Shown here: positions 24,578 through 47,646 of the stretch, piece after piece
How the letters are laid out: each line of letters starts with the position of its first letter
How positions within the stretch are numbered: position 1 is the first letter of the stretch
Source of the DNA: Promethearchaeia archaeon
GTDB taxonomy: Archaea > Asgardarchaeota > Lokiarchaeia > Sigyniarchaeales > SOKP01
Direction of reading: 5' to 3'
Length of the DNA stretch: 64,000 nt
Assembly (NCBI GenBank): GCA_046483985.1
Contig: JAWOCD010000011.1
Coordinates: 1 to 64,000, forward strand
Notes under the pieces: model-generated
What the model was told of the DNA's origin: nothing
Databases searched by the model: none
What the model saw: the letters and a program-made list of their open reading frames with translations, nothing else
Translations under genes and position numbers: made by a program

Positions 24578-24644
24578 AAGACTAAAAGTTTAAACTTTTC
24601 TCCATTTCAAAGTTTATGGGCGTTTTCCTTAACTTCTTAATTCT

Positions 24645-26464: not shown

Positions 26465-27979
26465 TTGATGAATAAAAAGATACCAGTAGTTATTGGTGCT
26501 GCTCAATTTACGCAGTCAAAAGATTTGAAAAAACGCTTGGATCCCTTAGGTTTGATGGAAAAAACCGCAAATATGGCCATAGAAGATACGGAATCCTCTA
26601 AAATTAGAGAAATGATAGATTCGATATTCATGTCTAATATAGTCAGTTGGACTTACAGTGATGCGCCCGGAAAACTCGGAAAACGGTTAAATTTAGACCT
26701 CAAGGAAAAGCACTATATGCCAATTGGTGGAAATACCCCACAATATATGTTAAATAAGGCGGCCGAATCGATTGAGAACGGTGAAATACAAGGGGCTCTT
26801 TTAGTCGGAGGGGAAGCTAATTACTCTACATACAAGGCAAAAAAAGGAAAATATGAATTAGATTGGCCAAAGCGTGAGAAGCCCTCCTATGTTGATGAAA
26901 CGCAACCGTTAGGATTTAATCATTTGATAAAAAGATACAATCTCCTCACATTTCCGACCGGATACGCCCTCTTCGAGACCGCATTACGAGCTGCTCAAGG
27001 GCTTTCCATTCAAGGGTATAAAAATCAAATCGGAGAGCTATTCGCTGAGTTTTCTTCCGTAGCGGCTAAAAATCCCCATGCATGGAGCCAAAAAAATTAT
27101 ACAAAGGAAGATATCATCACGCCGGGACCAAAAAATCGGTTAATCTCACATCCCTATACCAAGCGAATGGTCTCTAATCTTTATGTCGATATGTCGGCCG
27201 CTGTTTTAATTACGTCCGCAGATATCGCTTCACAATTACATATTCCTTCCGATAAGTGGGTCTATCCCATGGGAGGAGCAAATTTAATGAATGTGAAATA
27301 TATGTTACAAAAGCCAAAACTCTATACTTCTCCCGCTATAAAGTATGCAAGTCAACTGGCGTTAAAACAAGCGGGTCTTTCTCTGAATGATATTCATGCG
27401 TTTGATTTATATAGCTGTTTTCCGTGTATGGTACAGATTGCCCGAAGGGAGATAGGTATTCCAAAAGAAGATCCCCGACCTCTAACCCTAACTGGCGGAC
27501 TTCCCTATTTTGGCGGACCATTTAATAATTATTCCATGCATGGGATTGTCGAAGCCATTAATTATGTTCGGGATAATCCAGAGAAAAAAGCGTTGGTTCA
27601 CGCTAATGGGGGGTATAATACCAAACAATCCATCGGAATCTATGGAAGCAAACCAGGAAAAAAGGCTTGGAATGACAAAACTGAAGGTGAAGAGAAACAG
27701 ACCCTGATCGACAAAACCGCATTGCCAAAACCCATTAAAAAAGCAAACGGCATCTATGAGATTAAAGGGTATACGATCATCTATAATCGAGATGGAACTC
27801 CAAAAAAAGGGTTAATAGTTGCAGAAAAAACCACGTCAAATCAAAGAACCTATGCGTTTGTAAAACCAAAAGCATTAACGCTTAATAAATTCGTAACCGA
27901 AGAACATGTGGGAAAACATTGCAAGCTGAAATTCGATGAAAATAAATCTGCAAATTATTGTATAGAATTGGATTACTAA
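26465..27979 (+). CDS. Thiolase-like protein (SCP2/TLP type) with C-terminal extension
   Basis: PVVIGAAQ, GGNTPQ, PYTKRM, DLYSCFP, LTLTGGLPYFGGP. Confidence 0.82.
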   Translation: MMNKKIPVVIGAAQFTQSKDLKKRLDPLGLMEKTANMAIEDTESSKIREMIDSIFMSNIVSWTYSDAPGKLGKRLNLDLKEKHYMPIGGNTPQYMLNKAAESIENGEIQGALLVGGEANYSTYKAKKGKYELDWPKREKPSYVDETQPLGFNHLIKRYNLLTFPTGYALFETALRAAQGLSIQGYKNQIGELFAEFSSVAAKNPHAWSQKNYTKEDIITPGPKNRLISHPYTKRMVSNLYVDMSAAVLITSADIASQLHIPSDKWVYPMGGANLMNVKYMLQKPKLYTSPAIKYASQLALKQAGLSLNDIHAFDLYSCFPCMVQIARREIGIPKEDPRPLTLTGGLPYFGGPFNNYSMHGIVEAINYVRDNPEKKALVHANGGYNTKQSIGIYGSKPGKKAWNDKTEGEEKQTLIDKTALPKPIKKANGIYEIKGYTIIYNRDGTPKKGLIVAEKTTSNQRTYAFVKPKALTLNKFVTEEHVGKHCKLKFDENKSANYCIELDY

Positions 27980-28013
27980 AATGGAGAAAAAAAAGGATTG
28001 GTTAATTTTTTAA

Positions 28014-30005
28014 TTATAATTCTTCCCTTATTTCTTCATAGAAATCTAAAGAATCTGGATTACTTAAAGCTCCACGATTACCAACGGACATACCTCGTAA
28101 GATCTTCGTGACAGCTATTTCTACTTTCTTTCCACTGAAGGTATAAGGAATACAATTTTCAGGGACTTTCATGATTTGAGAAGGTACATGTCTGGGGGAT
28201 GCATCATTTCTTAGGGTAGTTTTTATTTTGTCCTTTAGATCATCGGTCAACTCTACGCCTTCAGCAAGATTAACGAACAAGATAACTTCTACATCCCCTC
28301 TTTCTCCTTTATGACCGATCGCTAAACTGTCTTCTACTTCTGGGAGCTGTTCAACCACATTGTAGATTTCTGCTGTGCCAATTCTAACGCCAGATGGTTT
28401 CAGAGTAGCATCGGATCTTCCCAAAAAGGTTATTCCGCCCGTGTCACTATGGATGATTATCCAGTCTCCGTGCCGCCAGACATTTTTATCTTCGTAAAAG
28501 TTAAAGTAGGCATCCTTGTATTTGGTCATATTCTCATCATCTCCCCAGAAATATATGGGCATCGAGGGAGATGGAGCTTCACAGACAAGTTCTCCTTGCT
28601 GATCCAGGACAGGCTTTCCTTCTGGATCGTATGCCTTAATTTTCATTGCTAATGCTGGAGCTTGTAATTCTCCCGAATATACCGGTTCGATTGGGAATGC
28701 TCCCGCAAAACATCCGTTAATATCGGTACCTCCCGAAATTGAATTTAGAAAAAGATCCTCCTTAATTTCATTATAGCAATATTCAAATCCTTCCGGACTC
28801 AAAGCACTCGCGGTTTGGGAGATCTCTCGTAAGCTCGATAAGTCATATTTCTCCTTCGGCTTTAGTCCTTTTCCCATTAATGTGTGAATATATGTCGCAG
28901 ACGTTCCAAAAATGGAAATATTATATTTTTCTATGAGTTCAAACATCCGTAAAGGTTCCGGATACAAGGGATTGCCATCATAGAGAAAAATAGTTGCGCC
29001 AACACCTAAGGAACTAATTAACCAATTCCACATCATCCATGATGGCGCCGTGATATAATTGATAATATCATTTCTTGTCAGATCAGTAGATAGGATCAGT
29101 TCTTTAAGATGATTAATTAATACGCCTCCAGCACTTTGAACCATACATTTGGGTTTCCCCGTCGTTCCAGATGAAAACATAACATAAACGGGGTGTCCAA
29201 ACGGGAGTTGCTCAAATTGGAGTTTCGGATTCTCTTCTTTTGAGAGAAACTCATCCCAGTGAACTGCATTCGAAAGGCCGCTGATATCTGGTTTATCATC
29301 TGAAATATAAGAGACGACTACGATTTTTTCAATTGAGGGGATAGCATCAACTACTTCTTTTACATTAGAAAGAATGTTAAACTTCTTATCTTTATAAAAA
29401 TAACCATCCACTGTAAAGAGAACTTTCGGTTCAATTTGACCAAATCGGTCGATTACGGCACTTGCTTGTAACTCCGCGCCACAAGATGCCCAAGTAGCCC
29501 CAATTGCCGTTGTGGCGAGCATAGCAACAGGGGCTTCAATCAAGTTGGGGATATAAGATACTACTCTATCTTTAGGTTTAATTCCTTCCTCTTTCAAAGA
29601 TTTTGCGACTCTGGCAACAAGTGAATTCAGTTCTTTATAGGTAATTTTCTGTGTTTTTTTTGTTTCTCCTTGGAAGATAAAGGCTAATTGGTCATCATCA
29701 AATTTCAGTAAATTTTCTGCAAAATTTAACCGAGCTCCCTTAAACCATTTACACCCCGGAAACTTATTGAGATCATCAACTATTTCAGTATACGGTTCAG
29801 ACGCTTTGATATCTCCAAAATCCCACATCGCCTCCCAAAAGTTCGGTATTTCTTGGATCGACCATTCATACAAATCGTCATAAGTTTCAATATTTTGGTT
29901 ATATTCTTCATTTACATAATTAATAAACCTAGTAACTTCAGCCTTCTCAATCCAATCCTTGGCAGGTGTCCATAATTTTTTTCTTTTTACCATTTTTTTC
30001 GCCAT
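28014..30005 (-). CDS. Acetoacetate-CoA ligase
   Basis: WFKGARLNFAENLL, FSSGTTGKPKC, SISGGTDI, WRHGD, GRSDATLKPSGVRIGTAEIY, SGKKVE. Confidence 0.92.
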   Translation of the reverse strand: MAKKMVKRKKLWTPAKDWIEKAEVTRFINYVNEEYNQNIETYDDLYEWSIQEIPNFWEAMWDFGDIKASEPYTEIVDDLNKFPGCKWFKGARLNFAENLLKFDDDQLAFIFQGETKKTQKITYKELNSLVARVAKSLKEEGIKPKDRVVSYIPNLIEAPVAMLATTAIGATWASCGAELQASAVIDRFGQIEPKVLFTVDGYFYKDKKFNILSNVKEVVDAIPSIEKIVVVSYISDDKPDISGLSNAVHWDEFLSKEENPKLQFEQLPFGHPVYVMFSSGTTGKPKCMVQSAGGVLINHLKELILSTDLTRNDIINYITAPSWMMWNWLISSLGVGATIFLYDGNPLYPEPLRMFELIEKYNISIFGTSATYIHTLMGKGLKPKEKYDLSSLREISQTASALSPEGFEYCYNEIKEDLFLNSISGGTDINGCFAGAFPIEPVYSGELQAPALAMKIKAYDPEGKPVLDQQGELVCEAPSPSMPIYFWGDDENMTKYKDAYFNFYEDKNVWRHGDWIIIHSDTGGITFLGRSDATLKPSGVRIGTAEIYNVVEQLPEVEDSLAIGHKGERGDVEVILFVNLAEGVELTDDLKDKIKTTLRNDASPRHVPSQIMKVPENCIPYTFSGKKVEIAVTKILRGMSVGNRGALSNPDSLDFYEEIREEL

Positions 30006-30177
30006 TAATTAGTCAAACTTTTAAGTAAATAATAATAGATGTTTTCTATAATTTAAATCTTCACAAATTTTCAATTTTTAACATATAGATGAAATTAATG
30101 AAACATTTGAAAAAAAAAGTGAATAACTCTTTAAAAAAAATAAAAAGAAGTTATATGGATTTTTAAGAATTGGGAAT

Positions 30178-31083
30178 TTAGAGCTCAACTTCATCCTTGA
30201 GGCAATTAAAAATTTTAAGGGCCTCCTCACCTTGAGCAATCTCTCTACCAGCATCTTTTGCAACCTTTACTGCCCATTCAACTTGTTCCCAAGAACCTTT
30301 AGCCAAGTCACCTTCGATGTTACGGATATTATCCTCTAATCCAACTCTTATATGCCCACCTAAAGCCGCTGCGCACATTCCCGCTTGAAATTGCTGTTTA
30401 GCCACTCCGCACACACTCCAAGTAGCTTCTGGAGGCTTAAGTTGAAGCAGATGGGCAAGATTTAAAGGAGAAAAAGGAATACCACCAAGCACACCAAATA
30501 CAAATTGAAAATGAAGAGGTTGTTCAAAAAGACCCTCTTGCTTATTTAAAAAGAGCATATTATGTAATCCGCCCATATCATAAATTTCCATTTCTGGCTT
30601 GGTTTTCGCCTTTTTCATCTTTTTCGCGAACTTTTGGATGGTCTTAAACGAGTTTTCGAAAATATTCCCAGCAGCCATAATCACTTCTCCCGTTTTAAAA
30701 TCGCCAATGCTAAAATTCATGGAATTAGTATTTAAAGACGCAATGGGTGGTTTAAAAGTCTTTACCGGTTTTATCCGTTGTCTCTCAGATGCAACTGCAC
30801 TAATAGCAGTGCTTAAATTAATGATCACATCAGGAGCTTTTGATTTTATATTTTCTAAGGCATCTCTGATTAAATCCAAGTCCCATGTTGGAATACCCTT
30901 CTCTGGATCTCGAATGTGAAGGTGTACAATTGCCGCTCCAGCGTCATAGCATTTCTTTGCTGCGTCACCGAATTCCTCTGCTGTATAAGGGACTGCTTCA
31001 TTTTGAGACTTTCGAGTTGCCGCTCCAGTCAAAGCTGCAGTAATTATCAACTTATTATCCGGATTTGATTTTGATGAATACAT
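30178..31083 (-). CDS. Beta-keto acid cleavage enzyme (BKACE/Kce family)
   Basis: LIITAALTGA, AGAAIVHLHIRD, KPEMEIYD, HIRVGLEDN. Confidence 0.92.
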   Translation of the reverse strand: MYSSKSNPDNKLIITAALTGAATRKSQNEAVPYTAEEFGDAAKKCYDAGAAIVHLHIRDPEKGIPTWDLDLIRDALENIKSKAPDVIINLSTAISAVASERQRIKPVKTFKPPIASLNTNSMNFSIGDFKTGEVIMAAGNIFENSFKTIQKFAKKMKKAKTKPEMEIYDMGGLHNMLFLNKQEGLFEQPLHFQFVFGVLGGIPFSPLNLAHLLQLKPPEATWSVCGVAKQQFQAGMCAAALGGHIRVGLEDNIRNIEGDLAKGSWEQVEWAVKVAKDAGREIAQGEEALKIFNCLKDEVEL

Positions 31084-31112
31084 TTTTTAATTAAACTTTT
31101 GTTTTTAATTGG

Positions 31113-31132
31113 AAATTCTATATATAGAATTT
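31113..31132. promoter_or_regulatory. Perfect 20-bp palindrome around a TATA-like core upstream of the BKACE gene
   Basis: aaattctatatatagaattt is self-complementary and lies 30-49 bp upstream of the start codon. Confidence 0.5.
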
Positions 31133-31397
31133 TTTTTAGAAAAGATATATTGAATAATAACTTATATCTCTTTCTTTATAAATCTTAAAAAATCATAAAA
31201 ATTAAATTAAAAATTACCGATTTTCGTATTTCTTAAGGAATTTAGTCATTATAAAGTATAAAAATGCAGAAATTAGTTTGCTTTCTATTATCATCTTTTG
31301 GATTCTGAAAATATGAAAAAATAATGATGTCTCACAATTCCTTTAAGAAATTGCTTTAAAAATGGAAATTAAAAAAAAAGTTTAAAAAATGATGGTT

Positions 31398-31919
31398 TTA
31401 TTCCTCGTTATCCTCCTCTTCGTTAATTTCCTTTGCTGGGTCGGGTATTACATCATAATGATCAATATCCATCCATTGTCCCTTTCTTTCATCCGCCCAT
31501 GCTACTTTTAATGGCATCCCCACATACACATCATGAAAATCCACTTGCTCTTCATTTAAGTTTTGAATAAATACTGTATCTGCTCCATCTTGTTGCACAG
31601 CAACAACAGGAAAAGGTACTTTTTCTCCCTCCTCATTTTCTTCGTAAGTTGCTGAAAACGTTGAGACTTTTGCCGTCTTTGGGAGTGTTACCCATTGATC
31701 GGGCTTTTTAAGGCATCTTCCACAGATCAAACGAGGTGGAAACGAAACTGTATTACAGGATCTACATTTTAATCCGAGTAAATTGCCTTCTTTTAATCCT
31801 TGCAAGAAAACTTTAATTCGGGAGAGGTTAAATTTATAATTATAACTGCTTAAATACCAATGTCCCTTTGTGGTTTTTGTCTTCTTATATTCCTTTTTCT
31901 CATAATCTGGTAAAGGCAT
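31398..31919 (-). CDS. DUF35 (zinc-ribbon/OB-fold) acyl-CoA-binding protein
   Basis: CRSC...FPPR..CGRC followed by OB fold ending VGMPLKV. Confidence 0.9.
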   Translation of the reverse strand: MPLPDYEKKEYKKTKTTKGHWYLSSYNYKFNLSRIKVFLQGLKEGNLLGLKCRSCNTVSFPPRLICGRCLKKPDQWVTLPKTAKVSTFSATYEENEEGEKVPFPVVAVQQDGADTVFIQNLNEEQVDFHDVYVGMPLKVAWADERKGQWMDIDHYDVIPDPAKEINEEEDNEE

Positions 31920-31937
31920 TAGTCAACATTTCACCTC

Positions 31938-33182
31938 CTATGTAAATTTTCTCCTTGGCTTATCGGCCAATACAATATGTGTAATAAAATTTATCGCGCC
32001 ACCCCAACCATGCCCTAAAGCGGTATGTACTGTTTTAGGAACCCGGTTTCCAGCTTTGCCCATAATTTGTAGCGCCGCTTCAGCTGGTCGTTCCATCGCA
32101 GATGCACCAATAGCATTAGTTGAATTTACTCCACCCGAACAATTCACGGGTAACTCCCCATCACGAGCAGTGACTCCATTTTTATAGGCTTCGGGTGCAG
32201 AATTAGGCTCAAATAAACCCGTTCTTTCTACCCACATTAATTCTTGATTTGGAAAGGGAGAATACACTTCAGCATAATCAATTTCTTTTTGTGGAAAAGC
32301 AATTCCTGCTTGACCGTAAGCAATTTCTGCGGATTTAACAGCGCCTAACTGTTCTGTGGGGTCTACTTGACCAGCACCAGAAACATCAACCCCTATAATC
32401 GCGGGCTCATTAGCTATACTGGCTACCCCATTAACGTAGACTGGAATATCTGCAATTTCTTTTGCTTTCTCTTCTGTGGTGAATAGAACCGCGCAAGCTC
32501 CATCCGATGCCGGACACACCATCCCAAACCTTAGGGGATAGGAAATATAAGGGGTATCGAGCACATCATCAATGGTTAAATTGGGCATTTTTAAATGGGT
32601 CCACCAATTTTTAGCAGCGTTTCTGCGATTTTGAACAACAACACGGGCTAAATCTTCTTCGGTTGCTTTAGTCCGTTTCATATAATTCATAGCTTGATAT
32701 GACGCAACTCCTATAGCTGCTCCCGCCCCCATATTTCTCCTCAATCTATCAATATCATAGCCAAGTTGGGGAAAGATTGATACCTCCCCTAAAGCTACAG
32801 AAGATAATCCCACAGTAGTATCACCACATGATTGCTGTTCAAACGCAATAGCCAAAACCGTATCATATAGTCCCGATGCAACTGCATAATACCCAGAAAT
32901 AAAAACTGATCCTCCAGTTGTTCCGCCAGTAGTTACCCTTAAAAGAGGTTTATCTTTTGCGGCAATATGATCGGTCATCCATAATTCGGGCATATTAGCT
33001 CCCTCAAATGCGGGCATATTTCCATTAATAACACAATCGATATCTTTCCACTCCACAGAATCGGCTTTCTCTAAACAATCTTCGACTGCTTCGTTTACCA
33101 TCTCGGCCATATTCACATCAGAGCGTTTCGATGCATGCTCACAAAACCCACAGCTAATTACAGCAGGTTGAATTTTTTCCAT
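31938..33182 (-). CDS. Ltp3-like Cys-less thiolase-fold protein
   Basis: RVTTGGTTGGS in place of the Cys loop; CPASDGACA, AEVYSPF, SGGVNSTNAIGASAM..AEAALQIMGKAG. Confidence 0.8.
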   Translation of the reverse strand: MEKIQPAVISCGFCEHASKRSDVNMAEMVNEAVEDCLEKADSVEWKDIDCVINGNMPAFEGANMPELWMTDHIAAKDKPLLRVTTGGTTGGSVFISGYYAVASGLYDTVLAIAFEQQSCGDTTVGLSSVALGEVSIFPQLGYDIDRLRRNMGAGAAIGVASYQAMNYMKRTKATEEDLARVVVQNRRNAAKNWWTHLKMPNLTIDDVLDTPYISYPLRFGMVCPASDGACAVLFTTEEKAKEIADIPVYVNGVASIANEPAIIGVDVSGAGQVDPTEQLGAVKSAEIAYGQAGIAFPQKEIDYAEVYSPFPNQELMWVERTGLFEPNSAPEAYKNGVTARDGELPVNCSGGVNSTNAIGASAMERPAEAALQIMGKAGNRVPKTVHTALGHGWGGAINFITHIVLADKPRRKFT

Positions 33183-33184
33183 TT

Positions 33185-34318
33185 TTAGGCAGCACCTCCT
33201 TCTAATACAAATATTATATTATTCTGCGCACAGAATCCAACTTGCCCAGACGCGATTGCTCTTTTTGCCCCCGAAACTTGATGGCCTTCCGCTTCCCCAC
33301 GAATTTGTTTCGCTGCCTCAATAATTCTCGTTAGCCCGTTTGCACATGGAGTATATCCCGCCATTGTTCCGCCGGAAGGATTCAAAATCTCCTTATCCAC
33401 CAATTCGACACCTTTTCCTTTTTCAGCTAATTTTGCGGCTTCTGATAAAATTAAATCCTCACATGCCGTATGTCCGAATATCTCGGCAACATCGATTTCC
33501 TTTTTTGGATCCCGAATATTAGCCATTTCATACGCTTTCTTAGAAGCTCGTTCCATTGATTTGCTTGTACTAAGGTCCCGATCTCCTATATAATAGGTAT
33601 CATTATTATGCCCTACACCTGTAATCCATACGGGGTTGTCAGTGATTTTTAACGCTAATCTTTCTGGGGCGATAATCACTACTGAGCAAGAATCACATAG
33701 TATAGGATACATCAACTCTCTTAAAGGAGAACTTAAATAGTCAGATTCAAGCACATCTTCAACTGTGATACCCGATTTCTGAGCTTCGGAAAGCGCTAAG
33801 GGATTTTTAGCCGCATTTTTATAATTGGATACCGCCATTTTCGCTATAACTTCCTTAGATACCCCAAAATTATGCATATATGCCCTCATTTGCATTGCAC
33901 CTGTCGTATAACTGTTGAGTAAATTAATCTGTCTATCAAAAGTGGGATCATTCTCTAAAACTCGGGTAGATTCATATGGGAAACATGAAGGCATGCTCGT
34001 TCCGTATATTACTGCAAGATTGTGATTGCCTGATAATATTCTCCATAGACCGTACATCAACCCATGTGCACCATCCATTTCTACCTTAGTTTCATCCTTC
34101 ATATAGGCTCCCCCAGACTCAACCTTAAAACAGTTTGATATCGTCTTTCCATCATAATAATCATTATTGACACCCACTACAGTTGTGATATCATCTCGTT
34201 TTAAATTTGCATAGTCCAAAGCCCCTCTGACTGCCGTGAAGTCCATTTCATATTGGCTCATTTTCATATCTAAATCGGGTTTCACTTGGTAATATCCTAC
34301 TATTCCAACTTTATGCAC
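33185..34318 (-). CDS. Ltp4-like Cys-less thiolase-fold protein
   Basis: DYYDG...KVEMDGA signature, NPSGG. Likely GTG start at 34318, downstream of GGAGGTGA. Confidence 0.8.
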   Translation of the reverse strand: MHKVGIVGYYQVKPDLDMKMSQYEMDFTAVRGALDYANLKRDDITTVVGVNNDYYDGKTISNCFKVESGGAYMKDETKVEMDGAHGLMYGLWRILSGNHNLAVIYGTSMPSCFPYESTRVLENDPTFDRQINLLNSYTTGAMQMRAYMHNFGVSKEVIAKMAVSNYKNAAKNPLALSEAQKSGITVEDVLESDYLSSPLRELMYPILCDSCSVVIIAPERLALKITDNPVWITGVGHNNDTYYIGDRDLSTSKSMERASKKAYEMANIRDPKKEIDVAEIFGHTACEDLILSEAAKLAEKGKGVELVDKEILNPSGGTMAGYTPCANGLTRIIEAAKQIRGEAEGHQVSGAKRAIASGQVGFCAQNNIIFVLEGGAA

Positions 34319-34319
34319 C

Positions 34320-34805
34320 TCATTCACCTCCCAAGGGTTCAAACCCTTCTATATCTGATGGATCTCCTTCACGCTTTTCACTCCAGACAATTTGCATTTT
34401 CATATTCATTTTTAAATCTCCCAGTTCGGTATTAATAATTGGGAGAACCATGGCTGTATCAGCTCCATCTATTTTTATTAACCCAACCGTATTTTCTGAA
34501 CGACTCTTTCTTTTTCTTCGTTCTGAAATTTTATAGGGTGTCACAGTAAAATTCTTCAATGTTCCCGTATCGGGCAATACGATATATTCTTCTGCTTTGG
34601 TGAAACAATCTCCGCATCTCTTTCTTGGGGGGATAAATATTTTACCACATTTATTGCATTTGTTACCGATTAATTGCTGATTCTCTAATCCCTCGAAAAA
34701 TTTATCCATAGGTTCGCCAACCCAAAAATCAAATTCTGCACGTACCATTCCACGAGTTACGTAAATGTCTTGGTCTTCTTCTAAATCAATAGGCATTTCA
34801 TTCAC
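34320..34805 (-). CDS. DUF35 zinc-ribbon/OB-fold protein
   Basis: CNKC..IPPR..CGDC, GTL, GLIKIDGAD. Confidence 0.9.
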   Translation of the reverse strand: MNEMPIDLEEDQDIYVTRGMVRAEFDFWVGEPMDKFFEGLENQQLIGNKCNKCGKIFIPPRKRCGDCFTKAEEYIVLPDTGTLKNFTVTPYKISERRKRKSRSENTVGLIKIDGADTAMVLPIINTELGDLKMNMKMQIVWSEKREGDPSDIEGFEPLGGE

Positions 34806-35104
34806 TTATCTTTTTTGAATTTTTTATTTAATTACGTTTTATTTTTTAAAAATTGGATATAAATATTTTTCTTTTCCCTAAATATATATTTTTAATTTTT
34901 CTGTTTTGATAATTTGTTTTTATATTATTTTCATAGATTCCACATTTTATGAATTTTTAATCATTGAACCTCTCTTTTTCTATTAAAATTATAATTATGG
35001 AGGAATTACTACCTCTTATGGAGAATTTCTGTTAAATTTCATAAAAGTTTTAACTTTTTATAAATGAAAAGTATTAAATTATAAAAAAACCCATAAATAT
35101 TAAT

Positions 35105-36841: not shown

Positions 36842-37046
36842 ACTACCACGCCATAAATGTCGGTGGATTCGTGCTCTCCGCTACGGCGGATAACACTTGC
36901 TGGTTCTCCAGCGGCTCTCGCATGGTTTCTATTCATTGCGAACTGTTTTCTCGGAATTCTTATATATATCCTTTCCGTTATTTAAATGGTTGGATTGGTG
37001 CGATTCATCGCACACCTAAAGGAGTATGTTTTCTCGCACATTTTGG
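36838..37046 (-). mobile_element. Non-autonomous IS200/IS605-family element (PATE-like, tnpB-derived ends), 209 bp
   Basis: The minus strand reads TTTAT | ccaaaatgtgcgagaaaacatactcctttaggtgtgcgatgaatcgcac (left-end hairpin) ... gaatccaccgacatttatggcgtggtagTTCAA (right-end hairpin and terminus). There are no terminal inverted repeats and no target duplication. Excision restores ...CTA AGA GAA TAA. Confidence 0.8.
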
Positions 37047-37220
37047 ATAAAAATAAAAATTGGGATCAGTAAAAAACAGTCACAAAATCAGTAATAATTC
37101 TGACAAATTATTATTACTACTCGTATAATCAGTAATTAAAAATAGCACGAAATTTTCTAAATGTGAAAAAAACATGAATTTTAAAAAAAAAAAAATAGCA
37201 AAAAAAAATAAAGAAAATTA

Positions 37221-37721
37221 TTATAAATCCTTTGAATCGTCTTCTATAGGCTCGTAATGATCAATCGCGGAAATATTAGCTACTGGCTCTTCAGACCATA
37301 CCACTTTAACTGGCATTCCGACATACACATCTTCAAAATCTATATCCTTTCTCAATGATGCTAACATTGTCGTATCACAGCCATCATGACGGACTGCAAC
37401 AACCGGTTTTTCAGCAACTTCTCCAGTTTCGGGATCTTTTTCATAGGTTATACTATATGTGGCAATTTGAGCCGTTTCACGAATATCTACCCATCTGTCG
37501 GGTTTAATAAAGCACTTTCCACAGACCAGTTTTGGAGGAAAAAACACCGCATTACAACTCCGACATTGATTTCCAACTAACTTTCTCTCCTTTAATTTCT
37601 CAAAGAATGGTTGAAAATGAGTGAAGTCAAATCGGAATTTATACTTGGATAAATACCAATTAGCGCCAATTGTTCTTGTCTCTTCATATTCTTTTCTTTC
37701 ATACTCCAATTTTTTTGACAT
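37221..37721 (-). CDS. DUF35 zinc-ribbon/OB-fold protein (paralog of 31398-31919)
   Basis: CRSC..FPPK..CGKC; shares YE.KEY..T, WYLS and DF.DVYVGMP with the paralog. Confidence 0.9.
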   Translation of the reverse strand: MSKKLEYERKEYEETRTIGANWYLSKYKFRFDFTHFQPFFEKLKERKLVGNQCRSCNAVFFPPKLVCGKCFIKPDRWVDIRETAQIATYSITYEKDPETGEVAEKPVVAVRHDGCDTTMLASLRKDIDFEDVYVGMPVKVVWSEEPVANISAIDHYEPIEDDSKDL

Positions 37722-37733
37722 TTTATTAACCTC

Positions 37734-38981: not shown

Positions 38982-38982
38982 T

Positions 38983-40122: not shown

Positions 40123-40124
40123 CT

Positions 40125-40601
40125 TTACTCCTCACCTCCAGCTTTAATAAACCCTTCAATATCTTCTGGGCTTCCCTTGGGTTTTTCTGCCCATTTTACT
40201 TTCACTTTCAGTCCCGTTTCTAATTCTTCTGGTTCCATATCTAATAATTCATAGATGATTGAGGTGGAGCATCCATCTATCTGTACCATTCCAATCATTC
40301 GTTTAGAGCTCACGGTTCTTGCCCCTCTTTCATTAACTTTATAGGGGGTCAGAGTATAATTCACCAAGGTTCCTGTGTCTGGAAGGTCTACCCAATTCTC
40401 TTCTAAGGGGATAGTAACATGGCATTTTCCGCAGATTTTTCTCGGGGGGAGAAACACATCATTGCATTCCGGACATTGATTCCCAATCAATTCTTTATTC
40501 TCAAATTCGTCAAACATTTTATCCATGTATTTTCCCACATAAAAGTCGAAATTGGCTCGGACCATTCCACGATTTGTTACGATTACTTTGTCATTTGACA
40601 T
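40125..40601 (-). CDS. DUF35 zinc-ribbon/OB-fold protein (paralog of 34320-34805)
   Basis: RGMVRA.FDF.VG, CPEC..LPPR..CGKC; likely start MSNDK. Confidence 0.9.
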   Translation of the reverse strand: MSNDKVIVTNRGMVRANFDFYVGKYMDKMFDEFENKELIGNQCPECNDVFLPPRKICGKCHVTIPLEENWVDLPDTGTLVNYTLTPYKVNERGARTVSSKRMIGMVQIDGCSTSIIYELLDMEPEELETGLKVKVKWAEKPKGSPEDIEGFIKAGGEE

Positions 40602-40766
40602 TTTTTTTCCTTCTTCTAAATTTGGATTAAATAAATTTTCTAATAAACTATTTGTTTTCAATCAATTTAAAGGTTTTAATTAAAAATTATCATAATCCCA
40701 AATTTGTTAAACTTTAATTATGAAAAATAGAAAATCTGATCACTAAATATAAAAAAAAATTAAAAT

Positions 40767-41138
40767 TTATTGAGATTTTAATGCAGCAGTTATGGCTCTG
40801 GTTAATCGAATAACTTCCATTACTTTTCCTTGTTCGACGGTGATTTCCTCTCTAGAAATCGCGTGGGTGAAATCTCCTTGTCCATTGCAAATCTTAACAA
40901 TGGCTTCCGAATCTCCAGACATAATGATATCGGGGTTTTCTGCCTTTCCTTCATACAGTTCTCCTTTTGTGTCTTCGATCTGAAGATAAAACGGTTTTTG
41001 ATCGTCCAAATTAAATTGAAATACCATGTCCCAGTTGACATCGGTACCGGCTTTATTGGTCACAAAGACTTGACGGGCTTTTCGCGTATCATTCACTTTC
41101 TTGATAATTTCTTCTAAATTCTTTTTTGGCTCGCTCAT
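40767..41138 (-). CDS. SCP2 sterol/lipid-binding domain protein
   Basis: VFQFNL..PFYLQI...G.LYEG...PDIIMSG...G..AI....I.V pattern typical of SCP2. Confidence 0.75.
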   Translation of the reverse strand: MSEPKKNLEEIIKKVNDTRKARQVFVTNKAGTDVNWDMVFQFNLDDQKPFYLQIEDTKGELYEGKAENPDIIMSGDSEAIVKICNGQGDFTHAISREEITVEQGKVMEVIRLTRAITAALKSQ

Positions 41139-41644
41139 TCTTTCTCGCCTCCTTCAAATTCTGGTTTTTGTATCCAATTTTCATATTCTCCTTCGGGAAC
41201 AAAGAAAAAATCCGTAATTTTTCCTTCCCGATCTTCTTCCTTCTTAAAGACTGCGCGAACTATTTCTCCTTTTTTGATTTTGGAAGGGACTAAGTTTTCC
41301 GAAAAGATTCCTTGTAGCATAGCCGTATCTGCCTCATCCAATCGGATAAACGCAATCCCATATGGAACATTTTGGATAAAGTCAGATGTGGTATACCAGA
41401 CGATTGTGCTGACCTCAATAGTTCCCGTATGGGGAAGTTCAATCCACTCGGTATCTTCGTAGCAATCAGAACATGCAATTCTGGGCGGCATCCAGACTTT
41501 CCCGCACTTCTTACACTGAGTTCCCAGCAATTTTTTCTCATTCATCAAGTCTATAAAGAACTTTGATTGACCACCCAGTGTATATTTGTAGGATATCTTG
41601 ATTTGATCTCTTATCTGATGTTCTTGAAAATCTTTCTCACTCAT
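41135..41644 (-). CDS. DUF35 zinc-ribbon/OB-fold protein
   Basis: CKKC..MPPR..CSDC, VPYGIAFIRLD. Confidence 0.9.
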   Translation of the reverse strand: MSEKDFQEHQIRDQIKISYKYTLGGQSKFFIDLMNEKKLLGTQCKKCGKVWMPPRIACSDCYEDTEWIELPHTGTIEVSTIVWYTTSDFIQNVPYGIAFIRLDEADTAMLQGIFSENLVPSKIKKGEIVRAVFKKEEDREGKITDFFFVPEGEYENWIQKPEFEGGEKE

Positions 41645-42894
41645 TCTTTTATCAACCCCTCCTTATTTGCCATTGTAATTACGGCAGCATATGCTGCCCC
41701 CGGTCCACCAATTGAATGAGAAAGTGCACGTCCATGTTTTATGGAAACTTGATGCTTTCCAGCATCTTCTCGTAATTGAAGTGCAGCTTCACCCGTTGAC
41801 ATAATCCCCGTGGCGCCTACGGCATGACCACATCCAATTAATCCACCTGACGGGCAGCAAGGTAATTCACCGTCAATCCATGGTCCCTCTCCGGTATTAG
41901 GTCCGGATTCAATCCATTTTCCTCCTTGTCCGAAGTCAACAAATCCGAGTTCCTCATAACTGATTACCTCTTGGCCGGAAAAGGCATCATGTAACTCCGC
42001 CACATCAATTTGATCCTTAATGTTATCATAATCCAATCCCGCCATCTCATAGGCTTTTTTTGCTGCATTAATATTCGAATATAACCTCCCCAAATCCTCT
42101 CTATTTCCAATAAAGCAATCGGTATTGGCAGCTCCAACACCCGTGATCCAAATTGGCTTTTCAATTCCCAACTCCTTTACCTTATCTTCATTGGCTAATA
42201 TTAAGGCGGCAGACGCTTCTGAATAAAGACAACAATCTAACATCTTGAATGGATAACAAATGATCCTTGAATTCATAACATCTTGAACGTTTATGTCCAT
42301 TGGAGATTGCGCTTTGGGATTTAACATTGCATTTTTATGATTTTTTACAGAGACCAGTGCCATTTGTTCTTCAGTCGGATTTCCAAACTCTTCTTTATGT
42401 GCGTTGACCATGGATACATACGAACTTGCCGCCATCATACCTAATGGATATTCATAAGTCATATCAGCACTGTAGGCGATAGCATTAAGAACTTCTGGAG
42501 TGGTTGTCCCTGTCTGTTCGTCATAACAATCATTGCATTTTTCTACTCCTAGACATAAAGATAAGTCGGAAAGACCCGAAGCAACTTCCGCATATGCCAT
42601 TCGTACAGTGTATCCTCCTGTAGCCCCACCGGAGGCAATTCTTGTCCCCGGTTTATCATTCATTCCAATATAGCTATTTGTGAAAATATCTGGCATAAAC
42701 TGTCGTTCAAATAATTCATTATAAATCCCGTAGACAGTCGATTCGAGATTCTTGTGGGTAATATTGGCACCATTCCGGTTTGCATCTTCAAGTGCTAATT
42801 TTGTAGCATCGTAGGCTAATTCAAAATAAGTCTTATCCAAATAGCGAGCTTTAAATGGTGTAATTCCAACCCCTATTATAGCTACTTTCTTCAT
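41641..42894 (-). CDS. Thiolase-fold protein (SCP2-type, Cys-less)
   Basis: VAIIGVG, RIASGGATGG, VAELHDAF, PSGGLIGCGHAVGATG. Confidence 0.85.
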   Translation of the reverse strand: MKKVAIIGVGITPFKARYLDKTYFELAYDATKLALEDANRNGANITHKNLESTVYGIYNELFERQFMPDIFTNSYIGMNDKPGTRIASGGATGGYTVRMAYAEVASGLSDLSLCLGVEKCNDCYDEQTGTTTPEVLNAIAYSADMTYEYPLGMMAASSYVSMVNAHKEEFGNPTEEQMALVSVKNHKNAMLNPKAQSPMDINVQDVMNSRIICYPFKMLDCCLYSEASAALILANEDKVKELGIEKPIWITGVGAANTDCFIGNREDLGRLYSNINAAKKAYEMAGLDYDNIKDQIDVAELHDAFSGQEVISYEELGFVDFGQGGKWIESGPNTGEGPWIDGELPCCPSGGLIGCGHAVGATGIMSTGEAALQLREDAGKHQVSIKHGRALSHSIGGPGAAYAAVITMANKEGLIKE

Positions 42895-43074
42895 TTTTAT
42901 ACTCCTTTTTGTAAAAATTTTTATATTTTTTATTGAATTCTTAATTTATTTTTGATTTCTTTATTAGATAATTAATTTTAAACGAAATACTATTTATAAT
43001 TAAACATTTTTAAGTTAATAAAACAAAATTATCTTAAATTATTTCAAAAAGTAATAAAATATATGTGATTCCTC

Positions 43075-44097
43075 TTGTTAAAAACTAAAATAACAGAAAA
43101 ATTTGGAATTAAGTACCCGATTATGAGTGCTCCAATGGGTCCTTTTTATACAACAGAATTGACTATTGCGACTTCCGAGGCGGGAGGTCTGGGTGTATTA
43201 TCTCATGCAACTCTCATGGGGAAGAATTCTATTGAAGATATGAAGGATCAAATTGATTACGTTGTTGAACATACAGATAAACCCTTCGGAGTAAATATTC
43301 GAACTGCTCGAGTACAAACCGACCATAAAATTCTGTTAAGAAAAATAAGAGAATGGAGAAATAAGAACCCAAAGATTAGGGAACAATTAATCTACGGATT
43401 AACAAGCGCTGGGGGACCCCATTATGCGAGAAAAATATGGGGGGAAAAATCGCCAGGATTAAATCATTATCATGTAGCGCCTGCAATGTGGCTCATTGAT
43501 AAAGTTGTAGAACAAGGGTGTGATGGAATTGTTGCAACCGGAACAGAAGGAGGAGGGCATCAATCTTATGAAAAGATTACAAGCTTGGTGCTTTTACAAG
43601 AAGTTGCCCGAAAATATCCTGATATGCCATTAGTTGCATGTGGCGGTATTGCTTCTCCGGAAGGAATTGCAGCTTCAATTGCCTTAGGTGCCGATGCGGT
43701 TACTATGGGGACCCGATTTATTGCTTCTGAACAAAGTGAATTTCATCCGAAATATAAGAATCTTATCCCCCCCGCGGAAGACCGAGATACCCTCTTAACA
43801 ACCGGAGGATTTGGCCCTATTAGACTTATTAAGAATAAATACGCCTTAGAACATGGAAAAGTCATCTCTAAAGAAGAGAAAATTGCTCAAGAATTATCAT
43901 ATGATATTGATGAATATATCAAAGATTTGAAAAAATATGAGATAGTCTATACCAAAGGCGATGTGGAGAATGGTGCAATCCCCGTAGGACAATCTTGTGG
44001 AATTATTAAGGAAATAAAAGACGTTGATGACATTATTACCACGTTTACTAAAAAAACTGAAGAAATTCTACAAGAAGCGTGTTCTAAAATATCTTAA
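43075..44097 (+). CDS. Nitronate monooxygenase/FabK-like FMN enzyme
   Basis: YPIMSAPMG, SEAGGLG, GTEGGGH, ACGGI, MGTRF, GQSCG; TTG start. Confidence 0.9.
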   Translation: MLKTKITEKFGIKYPIMSAPMGPFYTTELTIATSEAGGLGVLSHATLMGKNSIEDMKDQIDYVVEHTDKPFGVNIRTARVQTDHKILLRKIREWRNKNPKIREQLIYGLTSAGGPHYARKIWGEKSPGLNHYHVAPAMWLIDKVVEQGCDGIVATGTEGGGHQSYEKITSLVLLQEVARKYPDMPLVACGGIASPEGIAASIALGADAVTMGTRFIASEQSEFHPKYKNLIPPAEDRDTLLTTGGFGPIRLIKNKYALEHGKVISKEEKIAQELSYDIDEYIKDLKKYEIVYTKGDVENGAIPVGQSCGIIKEIKDVDDIITTFTKKTEEILQEACSKIS

Positions 44098-44147
44098 TTA
44101 TTTCTTTTTACCCTATTTTTTTTAATATTTTATTTAAACTAAAAACT

Positions 44148-44399
44148 ATGAAATCAGCAACAAAAAGATTAGAACAGAAATTTAAGGAACTTTCTAGTTT
44201 CATCTATAAGGCAATTACAGTTGGAGAATGTGTGGGCTGTGGTACTTGTGTTAAGTTCTGTCCTCTAAAGATACGGGTATTTGATGTACATAAAAAGGCG
44301 AAAACAATAAACACTTATAAAACTTGTCATGGTTGTTCTGTTTGTGTGAAACGTTGCCCTCTAAATGCGATACAACTCATTAACACGAAAAAACTTTAG
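44148..44399 (+). CDS. 2x[4Fe-4S] ferredoxin
   Basis: CVGCGTCVKFCP and CHGCSVCVKRCP. Confidence 0.88.
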   Translation: MKSATKRLEQKFKELSSFIYKAITVGECVGCGTCVKFCPLKIRVFDVHKKAKTINTYKTCHGCSVCVKRCPLNAIQLINTKKL

Positions 44400-44434
44400 G
44401 AGAAATATTAAGAGTTCATAACTTTTCCTTGATG

Positions 44435-45598: not shown

Positions 45599-45627
45599 TG
45601 ATTAAAACTTTCTTTTTTGTTTATATT

Positions 45628-47646
45628 CTAGGTGAGTACACTCATATCATAAAAATCTGTCAAACGATCTTCCATAATTAAAAATTCCTTATTTATCTCA
45701 TATAGCCTATCAATTGTATCGGAAAACTCATCATAAACTTTATTGCGCTTGAATTTTAAAGTGGGGGTTAGAAAGCCTTCTTTTTCAGAAAAATATTGAC
45801 AGCTGATTGCAAATCTTTTTGGTCGAGAGAATTCCGCCACATCTTCAGTGAATTCTACAACCTCTTCTTTTATTAACTTTTGAATTTTCTCATTCTTAAC
45901 TAAATCCTTCAATGTTTCATACTCTATTTCATGGTTCTTAGCAAATTTTTTCAACGGTTCTTGATAGGGAACTACAATTGCGGTAAGGTATTTTTTTTCT
46001 TGGCCCGTGAGCACAATCTGAGCTATAATTCTTGAATAAGGAACAATCATCCCTTCCACTAACGCGGGACTTATCATTTTACCGGTAGATAGTTTGATAA
46101 TTGCCTTCTTTCTTCCAATAATCCTAACGTAACCATCCTCATCAATTTCAGCTAAATCCCCTGTATGGAGCCATCCCTCATCATCAAGCGCAGCTTGAGT
46201 CAGCTTCGGCTTTTTCCAATAACCTTTCATTATATTAGGGCCTTTAAGCAATAATTCTCCCTCCTCGGTGAGCTTTTGCTGCATATTTTCATATGGATTA
46301 AGATACTCTGGAATTTCCATAAGAGGTCCCACAGTCCCTATTTTTTCATAAACCTCAACTTTTTTATCGAAGTTCGGTCGAAAATCCGAATTATCTTTTG
46401 TTCGCGAATAATGAGTTGCTGGAGCCGCCTCAGTCAATCCATATCCCTCTGCAATATTAAAGCCACACGACCAGAAAAATAAGATCAGTTCCTCAGAAAT
46501 TGAAGCGGAAGCCGTAGCAAGCAATTGCAACTTGCCTCCCATTTCTTTCTGAATCCTTTTTAGAATTAGATGTTGATAAAACCAATATTTTATTCTTAAC
46601 CATAAGGGATTCTTTTTACCCTCTATTTTATTTTTATAATATTGTTTCCCCGTGGACACAGCACTATTGAAAATGCTTTGAACCATAGGACTCATCTTTT
46701 CTACGGTGTTAATAATTCGTTCATAAATCTTTTGATAGAGATATGGAACACCCACCATGATAGTTGGCTTAAAAACTTGAAATGCCTTTTGAATTTGTTC
46801 TTGTGTCTTGCCTCCCACATAATTAATGGTTGAAGAATTAAAAATTAGTCCATATTCTTCCACAGTTCTTCCATAAGAATGAGCGTAAGGCATATAGGTA
46901 ATGGATCCTTCTCCCCAGGGTTTTTTCCCTTTTTCCAAGGTTAGGGCGATGGCAGATACAACGAGAGTATCAGATAAAAAGTTTTTATGAGTAAGCATAA
47001 CTCCTTTCGGTATACCGGTTGTTCCCGAGGTATAAATTAGACTGGCTAAGTCATCCTCATAGATATTTGCGATTGAACCGTTAAACAGATCGGGATGGTT
47101 CTTTTCATAATCCTTTCCTTTTTGCATAAATTCTTCCCATAAAATTACATTGGACTTGTTCAATTCATCATTGATTTCTTCAAATACAATGATGTTTTCT
47201 ACTTTTGGTACTTTTTCTTGAATGGCGTAAAACTTTTTCAAATTCTCTTGGGTATCAATGATTAATGCAATTGATTCTGAATCCTTGATGATATATAAGA
47301 TTTCTTTCGGTTTTAATTGGGGATAAATTGCAATAGTTATTCCACCTAAGCATTGAATTCCTAAATCCGCCCAAGCCCAATATTGAGAGGTTTCAGCACA
47401 GATTGAAATATGGTCTCCTTTTTTTAAGCCCAGAGATCGGAGCCCATAAAATACTGTTTTGATAATCCCGTAAAGATCCTTATATTTTATAGATTCCACT
47501 GTTTCTCCATCTTCCTTGAACCATCTCATTACAATTTCTTCTGGAGTATGATCGATGGTTTCGAGCACCATCTCTGCAATATTATTATATCTTTTAAGTC
47601 TGAGATACGGCGACCATTTGGTTTCGGTATAATAATCTTCCGACAT
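45628..47646 (-). CDS. Long-chain fatty acid-CoA ligase (FadD15/ACSL type)
   Basis: YTSGTTGIPKG, EGYGLTE, WLHTGD, IIKLSTGK, LTPTLKFKR. Confidence 0.92.
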   Translation of the reverse strand: MSEDYYTETKWSPYLRLKRYNNIAEMVLETIDHTPEEIVMRWFKEDGETVESIKYKDLYGIIKTVFYGLRSLGLKKGDHISICAETSQYWAWADLGIQCLGGITIAIYPQLKPKEILYIIKDSESIALIIDTQENLKKFYAIQEKVPKVENIIVFEEINDELNKSNVILWEEFMQKGKDYEKNHPDLFNGSIANIYEDDLASLIYTSGTTGIPKGVMLTHKNFLSDTLVVSAIALTLEKGKKPWGEGSITYMPYAHSYGRTVEEYGLIFNSSTINYVGGKTQEQIQKAFQVFKPTIMVGVPYLYQKIYERIINTVEKMSPMVQSIFNSAVSTGKQYYKNKIEGKKNPLWLRIKYWFYQHLILKRIQKEMGGKLQLLATASASISEELILFFWSCGFNIAEGYGLTEAAPATHYSRTKDNSDFRPNFDKKVEVYEKIGTVGPLMEIPEYLNPYENMQQKLTEEGELLLKGPNIMKGYWKKPKLTQAALDDEGWLHTGDLAEIDEDGYVRIIGRKKAIIKLSTGKMISPALVEGMIVPYSRIIAQIVLTGQEKKYLTAIVVPYQEPLKKFAKNHEIEYETLKDLVKNEKIQKLIKEEVVEFTEDVAEFSRPKRFAISCQYFSEKEGFLTPTLKFKRNKVYDEFSDTIDRLYEINKEFLIMEDRLTDFYDMSVLT

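Follow-up and report, generated by a model that had tools for sequence, protein, structure and literature searches.

What do thiolase-fold proteins do once the nucleophilic cysteine of thiolases is gone? This question is raised by a gene cluster in a 64,000-nucleotide stretch of DNA from a Promethearchaeia archaeon (the window; positions 1 to 64,000 of contig JAWOCD010000011.1, GenBank assembly GCA_046483985.1), which is part of a 4.06-Mb metagenome-assembled genome (MAG) that is 97% complete. According to the list of open reading frames (ORFs), their translations, and Pfam, NCBIfam and PDB searches, 19 genes lie between positions 26465 and 47658 of the window. Six of them encode thiolase-fold proteins, and four of these six belong to two paralogous cassettes with the gene order DUF35, Ltp4-like, Ltp3-like, DUF35. 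An earlier interpretation made from the sequence alone (the original prediction) had described the cluster as one for sterol or branched-lipid catabolism in an Asgard archaeon, operating through Cys-less retro-aldolases. Its assignment of the host agrees with the nearest homologues of the window proteins, which are labelled Promethearchaeia or Lokiarchaeia. Here we report that the cassettes, judged by their sequences, are an archaeal variant of the Ltp3/Ltp4-type module, duplicated at this locus. We also argue, with a confidence evenly balanced between right and wrong, that they may be aldol-type C-C lyases acting on 3-hydroxyacyl-CoAs, coupled to a beta-keto-acid cleavage enzyme (BKACE) and to the activation of acetoacetate.

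Loss of the nucleophilic cysteine

We aligned the six proteins, residue by residue, with the solved thiolases 7yvy and 6esq and with the two Cys-bearing thiolases of the same genome, one of which is encoded on contig C94 with a DUF35 gene and the other on contig C41 beside a fusion of 3-hydroxy-3-methylglutaryl-CoA (HMG-CoA) synthase and DUF35. None of the six has a cysteine at the nucleophilic position (Cys89 of Z. ramigera). The loops quoted in the original prediction are all present in the translations: RVTTGGTTGGSV in the 414- and 419-residue proteins, KVEMDGA in the 385- and 379-residue proteins, IASGGATGG in the 417-residue protein and PIGGNTPQ in the 504-residue protein. The nucleophile position is occupied by glycine in the proteins of 414, 419, 417 and 504 residues, and in the 385/379-residue proteins the residue opposite the cysteine depends on the alignment, being Glu with HMMER or Gly with MAFFT according to gap placement.

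The other active-site motifs have changed as well. The equivalent of HDCF reads YSPF/YAPF in the 414/419-residue proteins, FGHT/FEHS in the 385/379-residue proteins, HDAF in the 417-residue protein and YSCF in the 504-residue protein. The equivalent of GH, which carries the oxyanion-hole histidine of the GHP loop, reads TN, GY/GN and GG in the 414/419-, 385/379- and 504-residue proteins, respectively, and is retained as GH only by the 417-residue protein. The claim that all six lack the catalytic cysteine holds for the nucleophile; it needs qualification for the TLP1-like 504-residue protein, which keeps a second thiolase-type cysteine in YSCF, the counterpart of HDCF in SCP2 thiolases.

The Cys-less loops are conserved across dozens of orthologues, which indicates that their state is not the result of chance decay. 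Because both thiolase cysteines are lost, the known thiolase mechanism is ruled out, and these thiolase-fold proteins, as read from their sequences, cannot carry out thiolysis or Claisen condensation by that mechanism. In the genome as a whole, five of the seven DUF35-associated thiolase-fold genes cannot encode thiolases, and this also holds for the orthologues examined.

Relationship to actinobacterial Ltp3 and Ltp4

Among NCBIfam models, PRK08313 ranked first for the 414- and 419-residue proteins and PRK07937 was among the best for the 385- and 379-residue proteins. The best tblastn matches in a plasmid collection came from Actinobacteria, at 36-38% identity over the full length, and the overall identity of the cassette proteins to actinobacterial proteins is 28-38%. 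The actinobacterial unit consists of a tandem double-DUF35 protein of 309-339 residues followed by thiolase-domain proteins of about 355 and about 388 residues, the last of which is the matched gene. In Tsukamurella it adjoins genes for an AMP ligase, a crotonase, an F420 oxidoreductase, a P450 and a steroid thiolase, a layout equal to that of fadD19-echA19-Rv3520c-Rv3521-ltp4-ltp3 in M. tuberculosis. The ligase beside Ltp3/4 in Tsukamurella is 29% identical to the 578-residue ligase of our cluster. Both halves of the tandem protein match the cassette DUF35 proteins, and no half-to-half orthology was found between the split proteins and those halves.

A maximum-likelihood tree of 92 sequences placed the 414- and 419-residue proteins in a clade of 33 rows together with actinobacterial Ltp3-type proteins (support of 97 in the SH-like approximate likelihood ratio test, SH-aLRT), and the 385- and 379-residue proteins in a clade of 31 rows with Ltp4-type proteins (SH-aLRT 99). 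Pairs from Tsukamurella and Streptomyces are present in both. The two clades and a third, small clade of paired Cys-less proteins make up a clade of 70 rows (SH-aLRT 100) that contains no Cys-bearing thiolase. Thus the grouping with canonical thiolases that the original prediction had named first among its refutations was not recovered, and the relationship it had proposed to actinobacterial Ltp3/Ltp4 and their DUF35 partner is supported by NCBIfam, by the operons of the plasmid database and by the tree. We place the cassettes with Ltp3/Ltp4 at the level of the clade and not of the equivalog. The 417-residue protein falls into a small clade sister to the Ltp3/Ltp4 clade, whose members read G, HDAF and H at the three sites; its orthologues in loci L018 and L024, at 31-32% identity, keep all three. 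Cassettes 1 and 2 each pair with their own orthologues in other genera, so they are old paralogues whose duplication predates those genera. The relation of the cassette proteins to Ltp2, Sal and BbsB, which stand outside the 92 sequences, is taken from PDB E-values.

The resemblance to the M. tuberculosis Rv3523/Rv3522/Rv3521 type extends to several features: a pair of neighboring thiolase-fold genes, one from each of the two clades, Y-x-P-F and N-P/A-I-G-A-S motifs in the Ltp3 type and the EMD motif in its Ltp4-type partner, a complement of two DUF35 domains for each pair, and a CoA ligase and an NMO-family gene nearby in Tsukamurella. There are also differences. The DUF35 domains here are two separate flanking proteins, whereas in Actinobacteria a single tandem protein encoded upstream contains both; at the HDCF position the Ltp4 type has F-G/E-H-T/S here and H-A-P-F in Actinobacteria; and the host here is an anaerobic archaeon whose cassettes have a link to BKACE and no steroid gene context.

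Conserved residues and the putative catalytic subunit

Conservation was read across representatives of clusters at 50% identity. The Ltp3-like family has invariant Y307, N356, G87 and G90 and conserves an HG(W/F/Y)GG loop (HGWGG in our proteins). Glycine lies in its nucleophile loop, the invariant tyrosine occupies the first position of HDCF, and the invariant asparagine replaces the histidine of GH. The Ltp4-like family keeps only the acidic EMD/xxDG loop, and its HDCF and GH positions drift freely. In the YDHF motif of Ltp2 and the YDCY motif of Sal, the catalytic base occupies the position that corresponds to Y307. This equivalence is transitive, drawn by way of HDCF in the two thiolases of the genome together with a motif table in PMC12329534; among the subunits, only the Ltp3-like ones have the tyrosine at this first motif position. 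From this pattern we infer that the Ltp3-like protein would be the catalytic subunit and the Ltp4-like protein a degenerate or structural partner that has kept only the EMD loop.

Several known systems can be compared with the cassettes. Ltp2 (with ChsH1-ChsH2; PDB 6ok1) and Sal (with Shy) share with them a thiolase fold without the nucleophilic cysteine and a tyrosine at the first HDCF-equivalent position (PMC12329534). They require a DUF35 partner, and the cassettes also have one. Unlike the cassettes, Ltp2 and Sal are homodimers bound to the DUF35 domain of a MaoC hydratase, whereas the cassette DUF35 proteins are stand-alone, the MaoC genes lie on other contigs and the genome has no DUF35-MaoC fusion. 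The similarity to Ltp2 is only distant (E 3.8e-10 for the 414-residue and 2.7e-4 for the 385-residue protein).

The best solved-structure match of both cassette subunits is the thiolase-like protein ST0096 of Sulfolobus tokodaii (PDB 4yzo; E 8.9e-34 and 6.1e-29), which likewise has no cysteine at the nucleophile position (serine is aligned there). In contrast to the cassette proteins it has retained a motif of the HD type (HDMA) and a GHP loop with its histidine, and it was crystallized alone. In the archaeal complex of acetoacetyl-CoA thiolase, HMG-CoA synthase and DUF35 (6esq, 6et9), which is also the best match of the 417-residue protein (E 1.5e-45), and in the Sulfolobus ketothiolase/DUF35 fatty-acid synthase, DUF35 partners an SCP2-type thiolase fold as it does here, but those thiolases use Cys, HDCF and GH residues. 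The 504-residue protein is similar over its full length to TLP1 of M. smegmatis (4egv) and has all the hallmarks of TLP1, namely Gly at the nucleophile, YSCF, GG(L/P), which is GGP here, NGG and an added C-terminal domain, with no notable difference (motif equivalences from PMC3406046).

Distribution and genomic neighborhoods

With the 385-residue protein as query, a match at E <= 1e-40 was obtained in 66 of 201 sampled Asgard genomes; matches occur in 31 of the 40 genomes of the window's own family, with up to eight per genome. We fetched 20 Asgard loci, and the invariant unit in them is the four-gene cassette. In these 20 loci the TLP1 gene, the short-chain dehydrogenase/reductase (SDR) gene, the long ligase gene and the trio of SCP2, DUF35 and 417-residue protein genes were not found beside the cassette. 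The 21-kb cluster is therefore a local juxtaposition of smaller modules.

Some neighbors do recur. The original prediction did not list BKACE among the genes of the cluster. By matching by hand the coordinates of the cassette search with those of a BKACE search of the same genomes, we found 30 places, spread over 25 genomes from three Asgard families, where BKACE and a cassette are no more than 4 kb apart, and the linked cassettes are of several different paralogous types. Cassette 1 keeps the acetoacetate-CoA ligase, a two-subunit CoA transferase (3-oxoacid type) and the NMO-ferredoxin pair in two other genera. A ligase copy 73-76% identical to that of the window adjoins BKACE and cassette 1 in loci L019 and L020, where a copy of the NMO enzyme (70% identical) stands with its ferredoxin beside the same cassette; other NMO types abut cassettes in L023, L029, L050 and L055. 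Homologues of the 578-residue ligase (42-43%) are near cassettes in L025, L026, L032 and L036, and the SDR has a single weak match, 28% identical and about 7 kb from the cassette in the actinobacterial locus L049. Further neighbors in relatives encode aldehyde:ferredoxin oxidoreductase, Fe- and Zn-alcohol dehydrogenases, crotonase and acyl-CoA dehydrogenases, a set that fits a route of hydratase, aldol cleavage and aldehyde handling.

Some observations on individual loci may be added. In L018 (1427-5838) and L017 (16502-20000), cassette 1 and BKACE adjoin genes for a 369-residue protein with a C-terminal 2x[4Fe-4S] domain and for a protein of 436-437 residues; in L018, to which the Pfam search was confined, the latter is an Fe-alcohol dehydrogenase and is followed by an aldehyde:ferredoxin oxidoreductase. 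The orthologous pair in the window's genome lies on contig C59 (68391-71586). L036 contains a third cassette type, absent from the window's genome, in which the DUF35 domains are fused into a 332-residue tandem protein (7853-8851) as in Actinobacteria, and which is flanked by BKACE, crotonase, an Fe-alcohol dehydrogenase, an FAD oxidoreductase and a ferredoxin-reductase-like protein.

Outside the Asgards, the closest relatives belong to anaerobic Actinomycetota (Geothermincolia, Anoxymicrobiaceae and similar) and share 47% identity; those at 40-41% are labelled Dehalococcoidia and Streptomyces. A search for bacterial loci with one Ltp3-like representative (P0122) as query also found the cassette in two Proteobacteria MAGs. 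The fetched bacterial loci have the same split-DUF35 gene order and no BKACE within 8 kb of the cassette, and the Actinomycetota cassettes adjoin pst/pho phosphate-uptake genes. The coupling to BKACE may be specific to Asgards.

A proposed aldol-type lyase and its alternatives

The region as a whole would bring together, in a combination particular to this genome, several conserved acyl-CoA metabolism modules around Cys-less thiolase-fold proteins. By homology with solved complexes of DUF35 and thiolase-fold proteins, each cassette is predicted to give a heteromer in which two zinc-ribbon/OB DUF35 proteins clamp an Ltp3-like subunit and an Ltp4-like subunit together; the actinobacterial families, paired with a tandem double-DUF35 protein, have the same number of DUF35 domains per pair. 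The reaction would be an aldol-type C-C cleavage or its reverse, in which a 3-hydroxyacyl-CoA yields acetyl-CoA (or propionyl-CoA) and an aldehyde, a ketone or a beta-keto acid. From a free beta-keto acid and acetyl-CoA, BKACE would then make acetoacetate and an acyl-CoA of shorter chain; the acetoacetate would be activated again by its CoA ligase, and the NMO flavoenzyme with its ferredoxin and the CoA ligases may serve neighboring steps. This scheme is a proposal as to how the subunits assemble, that their chemistry is that of an aldolase, that a product passes on to BKACE, and in which direction the pathway runs.

Three lines of evidence point to an aldol-type lyase: the retained tyrosine; the homology to proteins required for the proposed aldol cleavage of sterol side chains and, more distantly, to the proven aldolases Ltp2 and Sal; and the genes for aldehyde handling and hydratases beside the cassettes of relatives. 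From the linkage to BKACE, a free beta-keto acid is suggested as one of the products or as an intermediate further downstream.

Six points weigh against this assignment. The NCBIfam scores lie under the family cut-offs (364 vs 514 for PRK08313 and 166-174 vs 419 for PRK07937). The second catalytic residue of Ltp2 (Tyr344) and Sal (Cys304 in YDCY) has no counterpart at the cassette motif, the third position of which is Pro. The Ltp3-like family has a near-invariant C223 in a CPxSDG motif, which leaves room for an unconventional thiol mechanism. The fetched actinobacterial cassettes have no BKACE within 8 kb and lie among unrelated genes. We found no assays of Ltp3/Ltp4-type enzymes in the accessible literature, in which the aldol-lyase label goes back to deletion phenotypes. 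Finally, the window encodes no hydratase: whole-genome searches found no acyl-CoA dehydrogenase, crotonase, MaoC or 3-hydroxyacyl-CoA dehydrogenase gene in it, as the original prediction had stated for acyl-CoA dehydrogenases and hydratases, and the 8, 6, 3 and 2 genes of these respective kinds all sit on other contigs.

The substrate named by the original prediction gives a first alternative, namely that side chains of sterols or hopanoids, or isoprenoid lipids, are broken down by the cluster through carboxylation of a branch, hydration and removal by an Ltp3/Ltp4-type retro-aldol reaction, as proposed for C24-branched sterols in Rhodococcus. This would be in line with the homology of the cassettes to Ltp3/Ltp4/Rv3521 and with the SCP2 protein, NMO-family enzyme and CoA ligases that also stand near ltp3/ltp4 in Tsukamurella, and BKACE and acetoacetate-CoA ligase would suit beta-keto acids released by cleavage of a tertiary alcohol. 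The premise that Ltp3/Ltp4 are established retro-aldolases goes too far, however: in the accessible literature, what is given for them is a gene-deletion study (Wilbrink 2012, as cited in PMC6593523) showing that they are required for the proposed aldol cleavage in C24-branched sterol side-chain degradation, and biochemistry is available for Ltp2 and Sal only (PMC12329534).

The genome argues against such a substrate. The route proposed for C24-branched sterols and isoprenoid acids needs carboxylation, and neither a carboxyltransferase nor an acetone-carboxylase-type hydantoinase B was found in the 97%-complete genome, nor was KshA_C, sought as a sign of sterol ring degradation, although absence from a MAG is not proof. 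The window and the cluster contain no steroid catabolic context in the form of crotonase, P450 or KshA genes, neither a P450 nor a MaoC-DUF35 hydratase is encoded in its vicinity, and the seven DUF35 copies found in the genome are all stand-alone or fused to HMG-CoA synthase. The terms "3beta-HSD-like" and "sterol carrier" are superfamily names, and the SDR and SCP2 matches are generic; the extended SDR that had been called 3-beta-HSD-like is present, but it fits Pfam Epimerase (5.9e-32) and NAD_binding_4 (2.8e-20) better than 3Beta_HSD (2.6e-15). In anaerobic Actinomycetota the cassette is conserved beside pst/pho genes without any lipid context, and the identity to the actinobacterial proteins is low. 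We therefore regard a sterol, hopanoid or isoprenoid substrate as unlikely.

A biosynthetic role is likewise improbable in our judgment. Here the complexes would condense acetyl-CoA with an aldehyde, for instance one supplied by a thioester-reductase-like SDR, to a 3-hydroxyacyl-CoA, with the NMO enzyme and ferredoxin as enoyl reductase, and so elongate chains without a thiolase, as an alternative to the archaeal fatty-acid synthase with DUF35 scaffold that is known from Sulfolobus. In S. acidocaldarius, DUF35 serves as scaffold of a fatty-acid synthase complex based on a ketothiolase, and an average of 3.8 thiolase/DUF35 pairs has been reported for Asgards (bioRxiv 10.1101/2024.07.05.601840). 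The cluster offers a FabK-like reductase with ferredoxin, an SCP2 protein and an SDR resembling NAD_binding_4 and thioester reductases, and an aldol addition would, on general chemical grounds, sidestep the unfavorable Claisen step. Such a route has no precedent, however; the cluster has neither dehydratase nor ketoreductase, the SDR is not conserved with the cassette, and the neighbors (BKACE, acetoacetate activation, aldehyde:ferredoxin oxidoreductase, alcohol dehydrogenase, acyl-CoA dehydrogenase) look catabolic.

It is also conceivable, though improbable, that the Cys-less proteins are pseudo-enzymes that bind acyl-CoA or lipid, or form a scaffold, and organize other enzymes such as BKACE and the ligases without cutting a C-C bond in pockets of their own. 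M. smegmatis TLP1 has neither thiolase activity nor a known function (PMC3406046), most catalytic positions of the Ltp4-like family are no longer conserved, and DUF35 proteins act as molecular staples in known complexes. Against this, Y307, N356 and H391 of the Ltp3-like family are invariant polar residues at former active-site positions at about 35% identity and in two domains of life, which is hard to explain without chemistry, and the homologues Ltp2 and Sal are real enzymes. That the proteins are still thiolases or acyltransferases with another nucleophile is very improbable: the Ltp3-like alignments show an invariant or nearly invariant Cys223, and the TLP1-like protein keeps the YSCF cysteine, but no member of the thiolase superfamily is known to use the C223 position, Asn stands in place of His348 and Pro in place of the acid/base Cys, and M. 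smegmatis TLP1 with its YSCF is inactive as a thiolase (PMC3406046).

Two further interpretations of the cluster were rejected. Ordinary beta-oxidation would call for a Cys thiolase, an acyl-CoA dehydrogenase and a hydratase, all of which are missing from the cluster, and the genome's own mevalonate thiolase/HMG-CoA synthase complex sits on contig C41.

Gene content of the locus

The genes of the cluster are listed in Table 1. The five DUF35 proteins, the SCP2 protein, the ferredoxin and the three CoA ligases of the original prediction are all confirmed by Pfam and NCBIfam, and one of the ligases is a true acetoacetate-CoA ligase.

Table 1. Genes of the cluster, with positions in the window and the evidence for each assignment.
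Feature	Position	Strand	Evidence or remarks
TLP1-family thiolase-like protein, 504 aa	26465..27979	+	PDB 4egv E 1.2e-71, Pfam TLP1_add_C; extra C-terminal barrel domain
Acetoacetate-CoA ligase, 663 aa	28014..30005	-	NCBIfam NF002937, 848 bits (cut-off 639)
BKACE, 301 aa	30178..31083	-	Pfam PF05853, 303 bits (cut-off 24.8)
DUF35 partner (zinc ribbon + OB fold), cassette 1, downstream member	31398..31919	-	Pfam zf-ChsH2, OB_ChsH2_C; same position in every cassette
Ltp3-like subunit 1, 414 aa	31938..33182	-	Cys to Gly (TTGGTTGG), HDCF to YSPF, GH to TN
Ltp4-like subunit 1, 385 aa as ORF (database protein 377 aa)	33185..34342	-	VEMDGA loop
DUF35 partner, cassette 1, upstream member	34320..34805	-	Pfam, synteny
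AMP-forming acyl-CoA ligase, 578 aa	35105..36841	+	Pfam AMP-binding, 299 bits; divergent between the two cassettes
DUF35 partner, cassette 2, downstream member	37221..37721	-	Pfam
Ltp3-like subunit 2, 419 aa	37734..38993	-	TTGGTTGG, YAPF, TN
Ltp4-like subunit 2, 379 aa	38983..40122	-	VEMDGA
DUF35 partner, cassette 2, upstream member	40125..40661	-	Pfam
SCP2-fold lipid-binding protein, 123 aa	40767..41138	-	Pfam SCP2, 27 bits (cut-off 21.3)
Fifth DUF35 protein, paired with the 417-aa thiolase-like gene	41135..41644	-	Pfam
Cys-less thiolase paralogue, 417 aa	41641..42894	-	PDB 6esq E 1.5e-45; SGGATGG, HDAF, both His kept
NMO-family FMN enzyme, 340 aa	43075..44097	+	Pfam NMO, 146 bits; probably of enoyl reductase type
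2x[4Fe-4S] ferredoxin, 83 aa, downstream of NMO gene	44148..44399	+	Pfam and NCBIfam searches
Extended SDR, 387 aa	44435..45598	-	Epimerase / fatty-acyl-reductase / 3beta-HSD superfamily, no specific assignment
Long-chain-type AMP-forming acyl-CoA ligase, 676 aa	45628..47658	-	Pfam AMP-binding, AMP-binding_C_3

The flavoenzyme that had been called FabK-like is indeed present as a member of the NMO superfamily, but it is not a FabK equivalog, scoring 176.5 bits with the FabK model TIGR03151 against a cut-off of 453. BKACE, the sole copy in the genome (a single match in a whole-genome search), likewise lies below every specific NCBIfam equivalog cut-off (Kce 260 vs 382).

In cassette 2 the upstream DUF35 gene and the Ltp4-like gene share a reading frame: the stop codon of the former directly precedes the ATG of the latter (window 40120-40127), and one stop codon, then 0-5 codons, separates the two genes. 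The same arrangement was seen in both relatives that were checked directly (L022, ~9230; L025, ~9520). The open frames of 540-585 residues of Ltp4-like orthologues might be taken for DUF35 fusions; for the two checked this was rejected, as a stop codon separates the genes. Weak searches for longer proteins gave no BKACE-DUF35 fusion, either with BKACE as query, in a range of 528-2000 residues that would miss a fusion of 430-470 residues, or with the cassette DUF35.

A stretch of 380 bp without ORFs (36842-37220) lies between the AMP ligase and cassette 2. The G+C content is 0.36-0.41 across the cluster (24001-44000) vs 0.32-0.35 in the flanks, which may reflect Gly/Ala-rich proteins or a foreign origin. 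The flanks are unrelated to the cluster and encode a PHP phosphoesterase, a phosphodiesterase, MsrB, ferritin and a Ras-family GTPase; the latter, a Ras/Roc-family small GTPase of 188 residues (20771-21337, minus strand; Pfam Ras 129 bits), is typical of Asgard genomes. A membrane H+-translocating pyrophosphatase is encoded at 52793-55060 (plus strand; Pfam H_PPase 612 bits).

Implications

Our literature search found no paper on these archaeal proteins. Thiolase/DUF35 pairs of Asgards have been counted as possible genes for fatty-acid synthesis, with catalytic residues not addressed (bioRxiv 10.1101/2024.07.05.601840). Because five of the seven DUF35-associated thiolase-fold genes in the window's genome cannot encode thiolases, such counts need a check of the catalytic residues. 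We tentatively suggest, while considering it the less probable outcome, that a four-subunit, Cys-free C-C lyase of the thiolase fold might be common to Asgards and several anaerobic bacterial lineages, and that its Asgard form might be wired to BKACE and acetoacetate activation, allowing a thiolase-independent, aldol-based shortening or building of acyl chains.

If such a shared lyase exists, most of the Asgard thiolase/DUF35 pairs counted for fatty-acid synthesis would represent another enzyme. This bears on the use of Asgard genomes, which are mined for hints on the handling of fatty acids and lipids in the archaeal ancestor of eukaryotes. The recurrent linkage to BKACE provides a concrete two-enzyme hypothesis. 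The four-gene cassette occurs widely and is conserved in two domains of life; establishing its reaction would also settle the role of Ltp3/Ltp4 in mycobacterial sterol catabolism.

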